This document shows positions 2,612 through 5,548 of a stretch of 64,000 nt of DNA, piece after piece; position 1 is the stretch's first letter; each line of letters opens with the position of its first letter. The position numbers were made by a program, and so were the translations under genes. The notes beneath the pieces are model-generated. The model saw nothing but the letters and a program-made list of their open reading frames with translations, did not search any database and was not told the DNA's origin. Source of the DNA: Candidatus Bathyarchaeota archaeon (GTDB lineage Archaea > Thermoproteota > Bathyarchaeia > Bathyarchaeales > WUQV01); NCBI GenBank assembly GCA_021158125.1, contig JAGGVF010000008.1, positions 3,827-67,826 of the forward strand. The letters are read 5' to 3'.

Positions 2612-3040
2612 CTAAGCTATACCAGCTTTCTTTAAAGCTTGAATCAAAGGAAAGCCAATTCCGCAAATGCTTATCGTAGACCCGATTCCCACTCCAATCC
2701 ACCATAGCCAAACTTCCATCTGAGTTAAAATTGCCAAGTAAGTCCCAACAACGAACGTTACAGTTACAGCAGCCGCAATGCATCCCAGCAGTTCTCGACC
2801 AACTGCATTCCTTCTTGAAGCAGCAATTTTCCACGCAAGAAAACTTGCAACAAAATTGGCTAATGACCCAAAGGTTATATCCGCAATAACGCTTGGCATA
2901 GGACTCAGAACATTTGAAATGGCACAGCCCGCCGAAACGCCCACTACTGCTGGCCACCCAAACAGTATAGACAAAGGAATTAAGGCGTCTGCCACTCGGA
3001 CCTGCGTAAGCTCAAAGCTAATCGGAGCCAAAAACACCAC
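2612..3040 (-). CDS. queT: QueT-family (queuosine/archaeosine precursor) transporter; the true N-terminus probably extends to about 3097
   Basis: Small polytopic membrane protein with the QueT-like pattern APISF..TQVRVADALIPL..G..ISN..D..FGSLANF. The in-frame upstream codons encode a matching first TM helix (NIGSRDVALTIVFAGLYAVL) but contain no ATG/GTG/TTG. Confidence 0.6.
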   Translation of the reverse strand: MVFLAPISFELTQVRVADALIPLSILFGWPAVVGVSAGCAISNVLSPMPSVIADITFGSLANFVASFLAWKIAASRRNAVGRELLGCIAAAVTVTFVVGTYLAILTQMEVWLWWIGVGIGSTISICGIGFPLIQALKKAGIA

Positions 3041-3101
3041 TAAAACAGCGTAAAGCCCAGCGAAAACAATTGTTAAGGCAACATCCCTACTTCCAATATT
3101 T

Positions 3102-3160
3102 TCACCTCCCTACACCGGGGTTTATATGGCGGAACGGGTGGGAGGCCCCACTCACCCGCC
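3102..3160 (-). promoter_or_regulatory. GC-rich structured 5' leader of queT with an anti-SD segment (candidate cis-regulatory RNA)
   Basis: Minus strand reads GGCGGGTGAGTGGGGCCTCCCACCCGTTCCGCC, a nested hairpin, then ATATAAACCCCGGTGTA and GGGAGGTGA (the SD). CCTCCC in the hairpin is complementary to the GGGAGG of the SD. Confidence 0.3.
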
Positions 3161-3263
3161 AACAACAGCAACTCAACTCCCAAACTATTAAATTTTTCCA
3201 AAAACATCAACAACACTTATTTAGTTTTTCACAAAAGAATACAGAAAAGCGAGGCTGAACCAG

Positions 3264-4931
3264 TTGATGAACAAAAAGGCAATTTCCTCTCTTGCACTTA
3301 TAATCCTCATGCTAGTTTCCGCAGTTATAGGCGGAATAATCGCATACATGCTAACAATAGCACCTTATGTTGAAATGGAATATGCCATTCCATCTGGCAA
3401 GACGACGCTGGTTATAACTGATGTATACTTTAACCCCGAAGATGCAAGGGCATTTATCATTAACGTTATGAACCCATCTTATTCCGTTTCAAATGCAACC
3501 ATCACCAAGATAGCAATCAACGTTAAAAACGAGTCGACATTATACGATGTAGTTGAAACAGAGCCAAGTTTACTTACCGGAATCACCGTTGCTAAGGGAA
3601 AATCTGTCAACATAACATGTTTAAAAGTTCAGTATAAAGGCGCTGAGATAAGCTGGGGAAGATTCGTTGGAGAATTTGCAGGAAGAACCATAGTTATACA
3701 TGTTTTTTCACCGAACGCCTCTGCAGCAAACAAAGAGTTCACCCTCCCAAATGCAAAACTTGAAATAAAACCAACTTTTGACCCAACAGTATCATTTTCA
3801 AAATTCAACCTAACAGTTAAAAATTCTGGATCAGAAAATTTAACAATAACCAACATACTTTTTGAATATTCCCTTATACCTACTGAAAAAATAACCCCGG
3901 ACATTTCTGAAGGCCTAACACTACCAGCTGGGGAAACCGTAGAATTCACCTGCAAAATAAACTGGCAAGGAAGAATAGAAGCTCCAGTAATCGTAAAGAC
4001 AAGAGAAGGCTACGAATTTGTTAAAAAAGAAAAAATTCCAGACGTTTTTATGTCAATCAGCGACGTAATCTTTAATGAAAATGAAACTGAAAGTTTTGAA
4101 GTAACATTAAATATAGACGCATATAGAATAGAATACGGCTATGTTAACGTAACTTCTGTAGTTTTAACATTAGATAATGGAACAGAAAAAACAATTCCGA
4201 TTTCCTTAAGCGTAGAGTACAACTCAAGCTTAACATTCGAAGTCCCATGGGAATGGAAAGAATACAGAGGAAGAAAACTCGATTTAATAGTTCAAACTTT
4301 ACAAGGGCCTACAGCGTCCAGAGAGAACATATACACCCCTGAATTAGTAATTCTCAAAGTTTTAAACAAAAATGAAGCTTTCAATCTAAAAGATAAACAA
4401 CATTTTAACATTACGCTGCAAAATCATCCGTCATCACTTGAAACAGTTAACATAACAAAAATAGTTATTGAAGAAAAAGGCGTTACCATATTCACAAACT
4501 GTACATTAAAACCTGGGCAATCAGCTTCGCTCTATTGCACCTACAATTGGGTAGAACACGCTGGACAGAATCTCACCTTAACTATATATACAAATGCAAC
4601 ATCGCAACCATTCAGCTTCATTTTTCCTATACCAGCTGCAGAACTAAACATAACCAATGTAAAACGTGTTCTAATCAATGGAAACACATATTTGAACATA
4701 ACAATTCAAAACATGAACTACTCAATATGGAACCTAACCATTTCAAAAGTAGTAGTAACCTTCGAAAATCAAACAAAAATATTTGAACAAAATTTTGCAA
4801 ATCAAATAACAGTGGAAATCGGTCAGCAAAGATTTTTGATATGCTCTGTAGATCCTTTAGATGAATACGTTACCATACTTGTAGAAACAGAAGAAGGAAT
4901 CAAAGCCTCATGGAGCGGAATTGTAAGCTAG
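3264..4931 (+). CDS. Extracellular repeat glycoprotein with an archaeal class III (type IV pilin-like) signal peptide
   Basis: N-terminus MMNKKA/ISSLALIILMLVSAVIGG resembles prepilin-type signals. Five tandem modules of about 100 aa each. About 20 N-x-S/T sequons counted by eye. ATG at 3267 is an alternative start. Confidence 0.6.
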   Translation: MMNKKAISSLALIILMLVSAVIGGIIAYMLTIAPYVEMEYAIPSGKTTLVITDVYFNPEDARAFIINVMNPSYSVSNATITKIAINVKNESTLYDVVETEPSLLTGITVAKGKSVNITCLKVQYKGAEISWGRFVGEFAGRTIVIHVFSPNASAANKEFTLPNAKLEIKPTFDPTVSFSKFNLTVKNSGSENLTITNILFEYSLIPTEKITPDISEGLTLPAGETVEFTCKINWQGRIEAPVIVKTREGYEFVKKEKIPDVFMSISDVIFNENETESFEVTLNIDAYRIEYGYVNVTSVVLTLDNGTEKTIPISLSVEYNSSLTFEVPWEWKEYRGRKLDLIVQTLQGPTASRENIYTPELVILKVLNKNEAFNLKDKQHFNITLQNHPSSLETVNITKIVIEEKGVTIFTNCTLKPGQSASLYCTYNWVEHAGQNLTLTIYTNATSQPFSFIFPIPAAELNITNVKRVLINGNTYLNITIQNMNYSIWNLTISKVVVTFENQTKIFEQNFANQITVEIGQQRFLICSVDPLDEYVTILVETEEGIKASWSGIVS

Positions 4932-5548
4932 TAGAAAAATTGAACAAAGCTCCTCAGTCTAAGTGGAACCCCTAAAGATTCAGCAAGTTTTTCCATTTCT
5001 CTTAAATTTAGTTCCGGAATTTTTACCGCAGTCACTTCTACTTTAAGCAGTTTTTTCGCGTTTTCTATAAATTGCAAGGTTTCATTGAAGGCATTACTAA
5101 AAATTGGCCTACAAACTTCGTTATAGACTTCTTCATTTGGAGCATTTAAACTAACGCTGACATGAGTAACTCCAGCATTTCGCATTTCCTCGACAACTTT
5201 ACGGTTCGGGTTTAGAAGATAACCATGCCCATTTGTGTCAACTCTTATTGGCACGGCATAACATTTTGTTATCCATTCGGCGACTTCTAATAGACAGTTA
5301 AAATTGGCAGTTGGTTCTCCGAAACCACAGAAGACTATTTCTTTCCAGTGTTTTACATTTATGTAATTAATAAGCTGTTTAATAACATCCTTTGAATATG
5401 GTTCATAATTAAGTCTGAGCTTAAACCCGGCTATCCCGTCCACGAAGTTTCTTAAGCAGAAATAACAGTTGTTTGAACACTTGTTCGTTATGTTTAGGTA
5501 TAAGCTTTCTCCTAGCCAGTAAACTAGAGCAGGCTTAACTTTTCTCAT
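4928..5548 (-). CDS. Radical SAM protein (resembles the TatD-associated radical SAM family)
   Basis: LYLNITNKCSNNCYFC carries the CxxxCxxC cluster motif near the N-terminus. Size about 200 aa. The 3' end overlaps the convergent gene by 4 nt. Confidence 0.75.
   Translation of the reverse strand: MRKVKPALVYWLGESLYLNITNKCSNNCYFCLRNFVDGIAGFKLRLNYEPYSKDVIKQLINYINVKHWKEIVFCGFGEPTANFNCLLEVAEWITKCYAVPIRVDTNGHGYLLNPNRKVVEEMRNAGVTHVSVSLNAPNEEVYNEVCRPIFSNAFNETLQFIENAKKLLKVEVTAVKIPELNLREMEKLAESLGVPLRLRSFVQFFY

Follow-up and report, generated by a model that had tools for sequence, protein, structure and literature searches.

Three riboswitch folds are already known for the 7-deazaguanine ligand family. 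The preQ1-I aptamer, which comes in types 1 to 3 and has a minimal length of ~34 nucleotides (nt), is an H-type pseudoknot in which a 5-bp helix (P1) is followed by an A-rich linker and by a 3′ tail. This tail forms a second helix of 3 to 4 bp with the loop and holds nucleotides of the Shine-Dalgarno (SD) sequence; its specificity bases are an AC or UC before the 3′ strand of P1 (PMC11625349), and the genes under its control are queT and those for preQ0/preQ1 synthesis. The preQ1-II riboswitch, also called the COG4708/queT motif and found in Streptococcaceae and Lactobacillales, folds into an HLout pseudoknot that has U-A-U triples and in which a P4 hairpin is embedded (PMC11625349), and the whole SD lies in its pseudoknot helix. 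The preQ1-III riboswitch is rare, spans ~100 nt, and combines an HLout core with an anti-SD:SD helix that lies far from the ligand pocket and forms as a pseudoknot in an aptamer-dependent manner. Both preQ1-II and preQ1-III are confined to bacteria. For archaea, reviews list only a handful of classes, namely TPP and fluoride and, rarely, FMN, Mg2+-I, and guanidine-II riboswitches (PMC5473149), and a 2024 review of the preQ1 family makes no mention of archaea (PMC11625349). None of the known archaeal classes is specific to archaea. Our full-text searches of the literature found no description of an archaeal preQ0 or preQ1 riboswitch, in line with an earlier note on the DNA analyzed here, which had been made from the sequence alone and knew of none.

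We analyzed the minus-strand leader of a queT gene in a 64,000-nt stretch of DNA from a Candidatus Bathyarchaeota archaeon (the window), and we find it to be a strong candidate for a member of a riboswitch class that would be new, mainly archaeal, and responsive to preQ0, a precursor in tRNA modification. Direct reading of the window places a TATA-like box, TTTAATAG, at 3192-3185, a nested-hairpin block, GGCGGGTGAGTGGGGCCTCCCACCCGTTCCGCC, at 3160-3128, an ATATAAA at 3127-3121, CCCCGGTGTA at 3120-3111, and GGGAGGTGA at 3110-3102, and each of the leader elements that the earlier note had located between 3192 and 3102 was found at its position. The GC content is 0.63 across 3110-3169 and 0.25 to 0.30 across 3170-3259, in keeping with the GC island in AT-rich flanks that the note had described. 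The note had also suspected that the leader matches no preQ1 riboswitch consensus, and the models for preQ1-I (RF00522), preQ1-II (RF01054), and preQ1-III (RF02680) indeed gave no match at E ≤ 10 in positions 2900-3400 of the window or in 19 other copies of the motif. When the families of Rfam 15 were searched with the window, these 19 copies, and an alternative long leader, only chance-level matches were obtained at E ≤ 10.

The open reading frame (ORF) downstream of the leader encodes a QueT transporter (Pfam PF06177, E = 1.3e-27), the family to which the earlier note had assigned it, with profile positions 2-141 matching from residue 7 when residues are counted from an ATT codon at 3097. 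This ATT is the sole queT start in the window that keeps the first transmembrane segment. Since an in-frame TAG lies at 3112-3110 and initiation at the next canonical in-frame start, the GTG at 3040, would remove that segment, queT most likely starts at ATT 3097, giving a predicted coding sequence on the minus strand from 3097-3095 to a stop at 2614-2612. The distance from the end of the SD core to the ATT is 7 nt, the modal spacing among copies of the motif. Among 145 queT leaders, the start codon is TTG in 67 (46%), ATG in 31, and GTG in 28, while 19 have only a near-cognate or nonstandard codon in the start window, including ACG in 7, CTG in 7, ATA in 2, and ATT in 1; together, ACG, CTG, ATA, and ATT account for ~12% of the leaders. 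This set of start codons is unusually weak and would make initiation strongly dependent on an exposed SD.

In the window, queT is monocistronic, since an ORF on the plus strand (2-2593), identified as family B DNA polymerase-like from its translation, converges on its 3′ end. Nearby are a minus-strand gene (4928-5548) for a 206-aa radical SAM protein of unassigned type, whose motif is not QueE-like, and a divergent plus-strand gene (3264-4931) for a 555-aa protein with an N-terminal membrane anchor and weak matches to Ig-like repeats. Elsewhere, two same-strand queT genes (L016, at G018:C1:395350-396944, and L017) are ~1.1 kb apart, with the motif before the first only. In two genomes (L007 and L008), QueT lies inside open frames of 241 to 256 aa, each with two separate query matches, as might result from a partial duplication or from an insertion within the frame.

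Of 60 related genomes, 53 encode QueT, and the same block precedes nearly every copy. With a covariance model built from 37 copies, the copy in the window scored 87.3 bits (E = 2e-25), while the next best match in its own 1.37-Mb genome had an E value of 0.05 and nothing else there was credible. Of 401 Bathyarchaeia genomes searched with the model, 292 contain the motif, mostly as a single copy, as do 175 of the 219 that are of high quality. One copy (L102) is in the genome of Ca. Bathyarchaeum tardum (CP122380.1). The model also detected the motif in 24 further genomes from other classes of Thermoproteota, where its sequence stays almost identical at loci with GC contents between 0.35 and 0.61. 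When GTDB species genomes were scanned with a pattern, the hosts were Bathyarchaeia together with Methanomethylicota, Promethearchaeota (Asgard), and "Nitrososphaerota" metagenome-assembled genomes; five matches on bacterial contigs (L099, L110, L118, L125, and L163) were not recognized by the covariance model and were discarded as chance hits. Taken as a single sequence, the 121-nt leader folds no better than its shuffles (z = +0.66), and the 33-nt core does not differ significantly from them (z = -1.66), so the evidence against chance is comparative. This evidence indicates that the leader is a copy of a very highly conserved RNA element and not a chance hairpin. The earlier note had staked its proposal on conservation and covariation before orthologous genes, and both were found upstream of queT orthologues.

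The conserved pairing comprises two helices. P1 has 5 bp, GGCGG (3160-3156) with CCGCC (3132-3128), and its outermost pair covaries, being G:C in 139, G:U in 10, A:U in 7, U:A in 7, and C:G in 2 of 169 copies; the second pair is A:U in 1 copy. The other helix crosses P1 and coexists with it. In this helix, CCUCCCACCC (3145-3136), made up of two extra cytosines and the inner hairpin's 3′ half, is complementary to GG-n-GU-n-GGGAGG (3116-3105) in the SD region. In full, the helix has 10 to 11 bp between the anti-SD strand GCCUCCCACCC (3146-3136) and GG-U-GU-A-GGGAGGU (3116-3104), the strand that carries the SD GGGAGGUGA (3110-3102). Its pairs are C3136:G3116, C3137:G3115, C3138:G3113, A3139:U3112, C3140:G3110, C3141:G3109, C3142:G3108, U3143:A3107, C3144:G3106, C3145:G3105, and G3146.U3104, so that the SD GGGAGG at 3110-3105 is wholly paired and the element as a whole spans ~57 nt (3160-3104). 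The earlier note had seen the anti-SD:SD pairing, which exists, but had drawn it too short: C3136 and C3137 also pair with G3116 and G3115, and C3138 and A3139 with G3113 and U3112.

In the MAFFT alignments (A1 and A2), four divergent copies were out of place and the GGAGG and GGGAGG forms were out of register; we replaced these alignments with a subset of copies free of gaps (A3) and with an alignment fitted to the model (A4). In the gapless alignment of 42 copies, 97.3% of P1 and pseudoknot cells are paired, compared to 93.8% in column shuffles, none of 500 of which reached the observed value, and sliding the partner strand lowers the figure to 42 to 50%. In 95 further copies, 97.0% of the cells are paired, compared to 89.1% after shuffling, with two-sided changes at 10 pairs, part of which reflect a register shift between CCUCCC and CCUCC in an alignment that had been fitted to the structure model. 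Because of this shift, we gave more weight to an alignment-free duplex test, in which native anti-SD/SD combinations gave -14.86 kcal/mol compared to -13.64 kcal/mol for cross-paired ones (0 of 5,000 permutations). The same register was recovered by RNAduplex in most of the tabulated variant types. We also gave weight to these discrete compensatory types, which include CCUCCU with AAGGAGG, UCUCCU with GGGAGA, CCUCCAC with GUGGGGG, (U/C)CACCUCC with GGAGGUG(A/G), AUCC with GGA where other copies have ACCC with GG-n-G, UCACCUCC with GGAGGUGA as against CCACCUCC with GGAGGUGG, and CCACCCCC with GGGAGGUGG. In one further type, GUCUCU with AGAGAC, the pairing is kept while the canonical SD is absent, so the complementarity is not a mere by-product of both strands resembling 16S rRNA pairing. 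Most paired positions are invariant, and the covariation rests on ~8 to 10 variant types, some of which are probably single clades. The G.U combinations number 58 and the A.C combinations 19, an excess that points to a sense-strand RNA. Thus, an H-type pseudoknot made of P1 and the crossing anti-SD:SD helix is supported by the comparative data.

We also found a promoter signal at a fixed distance from this structure. In 167 copies, an A-rich run lies at -40 to -36 and a T/A box at -34 to -28 from the first base of P1; in the window, TTTAATAG begins at -32 and forms, with a BRE-like A-rich run at 3199-3193, a predicted archaeal promoter (3199-3185). From this fixed distance we infer that transcription starts a few nt 5′ of P1. 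The internal ATATAAA is unlikely to be a promoter and is instead the A-rich linker of the pseudoknot, since its AAA alone is invariant (its counterpart in many copies is CAAACAAA, CTAGAAA, or GTAGCAAA), the length and sequence of the linker vary, and a separate promoter signal lies 28 to 40 nt upstream of P1. These data bear on whether the block could act as DNA, that is, as an operator whose inverted repeat is recognized by a transcription factor, in which case queT would have a leaderless transcript with ATATAAA as its TATA box. The GGCGG...CCGCC of P1 is an inverted repeat, and ATATAAA lies 24 to 30 nt before the ATT in the window, which is the canonical distance. However, besides the variable box, the linker of ~7 to 25 nt among copies, and the separate upstream promoter signal, a canonical SD is conserved at the modal 7-nt spacing, which a leaderless mRNA would not need, and the anti-SD/SD complementarity is nonpalindromic and bulged and tolerates G.U three times more than A.C, so we consider an operator highly improbable. 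A leader peptide was also rejected, because the 47-aa ORF at 3073-3216 begins upstream of the predicted TATA box and because the insertions and deletions in loops and linker are not multiples of three.

The anti-SD strand has a second possible partner. In an inner hairpin, P2, GUGGG (3151-3147) pairs with CCCAC (3142-3138), and 97% of the cells in its four-pair core are paired, with variation that is almost all from G:C to G:U. The lone compensatory case is GCGG:CCGU (L100), and P2 is missing from some copies (L037, L104, L128, and L174). Since positions 3142-3138 are common to P2 and the pseudoknot, the two are mutually exclusive, as the earlier note had argued for the two folds it proposed, both of which are present in the sequence. 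The computed energies are -17.9 kcal/mol for P1 with P2 and, for the parts of the other fold, -8.2 (P1) and -13.1 kcal/mol (pseudoknot helix), so that the two folds are predicted to be of similar stability.

Outside the helices, ~20 unpaired nucleotides in three segments (GUGAG, GUU, and AAACCCC) are near-invariant. The joining segment GUGAG (3155-3151), the core of loop L1, is unpaired in both folds except for G3151, and in 169 copies it reads GTGAG in 139, GTAGG in 19, and GTAAG in 5. The GUU of L2 (3135-3133), between the pseudoknot strand and the 3′ strand of P1, lies in a stretch, CCGTTCCG, that is invariant in alignments A1 to A3. The linker L3, AUAUAAACCCC (3127-3117), has an A-rich, length-variable 5′ part and a near-invariant end, AAA(C/U/A)CCC, which is AAACCCCGG in 117 copies, AAAACCCGG in 26, and AAATCCCGG in 25 of the same 169. 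No covarying partner for the invariant CCCC was found among the G-runs of L1 or positions 8/9. RNAalifold predicts a small local hairpin between the CCCC and the SD that would blur the ON state; we rejected this hairpin, as it has no compensatory support and as AAAACCCGG, found in 26 of 169 copies, would make its first pair A.G. The hairpin fold gives the conserved 3′ tail no reason, while the pseudoknot brings the three loops together at its junction with P1; we therefore infer that the pseudoknot is the ligand-bound form, with the pocket at that junction.

The genes behind the motif narrow the choice of ligand. Among 145 ORFs that follow a copy, 135 encode QueT, 3 a QueE-like radical SAM protein, and 2 QueC, and the motif heads operons with the gene orders queC-queT (L137:209-1460), queE-queC (L106:731-2267), and queE-GATase/QueC-DUF2848 (L161:4493-7415). 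The counts and the makeup of these operons show that the motif is confined to genes for preQ0 uptake and synthesis, and its presence before queE and queC operons makes preQ0 the likely ligand. We note that DUF2848 is thereby linked to 7-deazaguanine metabolism. The genome that contains the window (G000), which is 98.4% complete, encodes an archaeal-type tRNA-guanine transglycosylase (arcTGT; E = 3e-89, C12:5113-6084). No QueC was found in it, and it has only generic radical SAM similarity to QueE. Since arcTGT is present and QueC absent, this organism would have to import or salvage preQ0, and it looks like a preQ0 auxotroph in which QueT is the sole candidate importer that we saw.

A conserved, structured 5′ leader that shows covariation and precedes the genes of one pathway, as seen here, is the generic mark of a riboswitch. 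The same structure could in principle mask the SD without sensing a small molecule, as a constitutive brake, an RNA thermometer, or a site for a protein or tRNA, such as a factor that reports archaeosine status. Masking of the SD and two alternative folds fit such a device, and so does the abundance of weak start codons (TTG in 46% of leaders and ACG, CTG, ATA, or ATT in ~12%), which is consistent with expression held low by several means. A simple mask, however, would have no need of ~20 near-invariant unpaired nucleotides, kept across classes and across loci with GC contents from 0.35 to 0.61, and the restriction to genes of preQ0 uptake and synthesis is the usual signature of metabolite feedback. 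In addition, we noticed no candidate regulator gene beside the element, although we made no systematic search. We regard a structure that does not sense a metabolite as unlikely.

Of the described classes, preQ1-I most invites comparison. Both RNAs are H-type pseudoknots with a 5-bp P1, an A-rich linker, and a loop-pairing 3′ tail that holds SD nucleotides, and both control queT and preQ0/preQ1 synthesis genes, here presumably as an OFF switch. These shared features could mean that the element is a very divergent preQ1-I member, with the same H-type pocket to which a hairpin and a long SD helix have been added, and not a new class. If P1 is read as 4 bp, a U-C precedes its 3′ strand, as in type I (PMC11625349); this requires that the invariant pair G3156:C3132 be unformed, and covariation is silent on an invariant pair. 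In contrast, a P1 of 5 bp has an invariant U, part of the GUU, just before its 3′ strand, in place of the specificity C of the AC or UC in preQ1-I. The second helix is 10 to 11 bp rather than 3 to 4 bp, the element is ~57 nt long compared to ~34 nt for the minimal preQ1-I aptamer, its 10-nt L1 can form a competing hairpin, and the conserved GUGAG and CCCC have no preQ1-I counterpart. The hosts also differ, being archaea, for which the usable ligand is preQ0 rather than preQ1 and from which preQ1-I is unreported (PMC5473149; archaea are unmentioned in PMC11625349), and RF00522 found no match at E ≤ 10 in the window and 19 copies. We therefore judge membership in preQ1-I to be very unlikely. The element shares with preQ1-II its queT context and the placement of the whole SD in the pseudoknot helix, but it has no sequence in common with that bacterial class, and its linker, which varies in length and sequence, lacks an embedded hairpin such as the P4 insert of the HLout fold. 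With preQ1-III it shares an anti-SD:SD helix that forms as a pseudoknot, but not the length, the HLout core, or the distance of the SD helix from the pocket.

On the balance of this evidence, the leader is probably a cis-acting riboswitch that turns translation OFF in response to preQ0 (7-cyano-7-deazaguanine) or a very close 7-deazaguanine. In the mechanism that we propose, the queT mRNA would begin a few nt before P1. When preQ0 is scarce, P2 (GUGGG:CCCAC) would hold the anti-SD and leave the SD free, which would allow ribosomes to initiate from the weak ATT. With preQ0 in abundance, the anti-SD would pair with GG-U-GU-A-GGGAGG in an H-type pseudoknot atop P1, with GUGAG, GUU, and AAACCCC meeting at the P1/pseudoknot junction as the proposed ligand pocket. 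The SD would then be buried and QueT synthesis would stop, and the same logic would apply to the queE and queC operons.

Whether the element also constitutes a fourth structural class of 7-deazaguanine riboswitch, the first native to Archaea, we regard as evenly balanced. Such a class would be tuned to preQ0, from which archaeosine is made, instead of preQ1, and would be old, with members in Bathyarchaeia, other Thermoproteota, Methanomethylicota, and some Asgard archaea. By burying the SD in a long pseudoknot, it would control uptake through queT as well as synthesis through queE and queC. If this is correct, archaea have evolved metabolite-sensing RNAs of their own, a ligand family with three folds gains a new one, SD-based translational control by RNA structure is demonstrated in archaea, and preQ0 salvage is a regulated trait in uncultured Bathyarchaeia. 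As the RNA is short (~60 nt), these predictions can be tested in vitro without culturing the organism.

We also found that five genomes of one genus (g21) have a different queT leader of ~105 nt (L012:1388-1495, L009:1378-1485, and L217 to L221), for which Rfam 15 gave no match above chance level at E ≤ 10. It contains a hairpin, GGCGGGUUGAGCUCCGCC, another stem-loop in which compensatory changes occur, and a conserved AAAUCAACC, and its SD is sequestered by a local hairpin, GCCUCCGC...GUGGAGGU. This leader may represent a second queT leader type.
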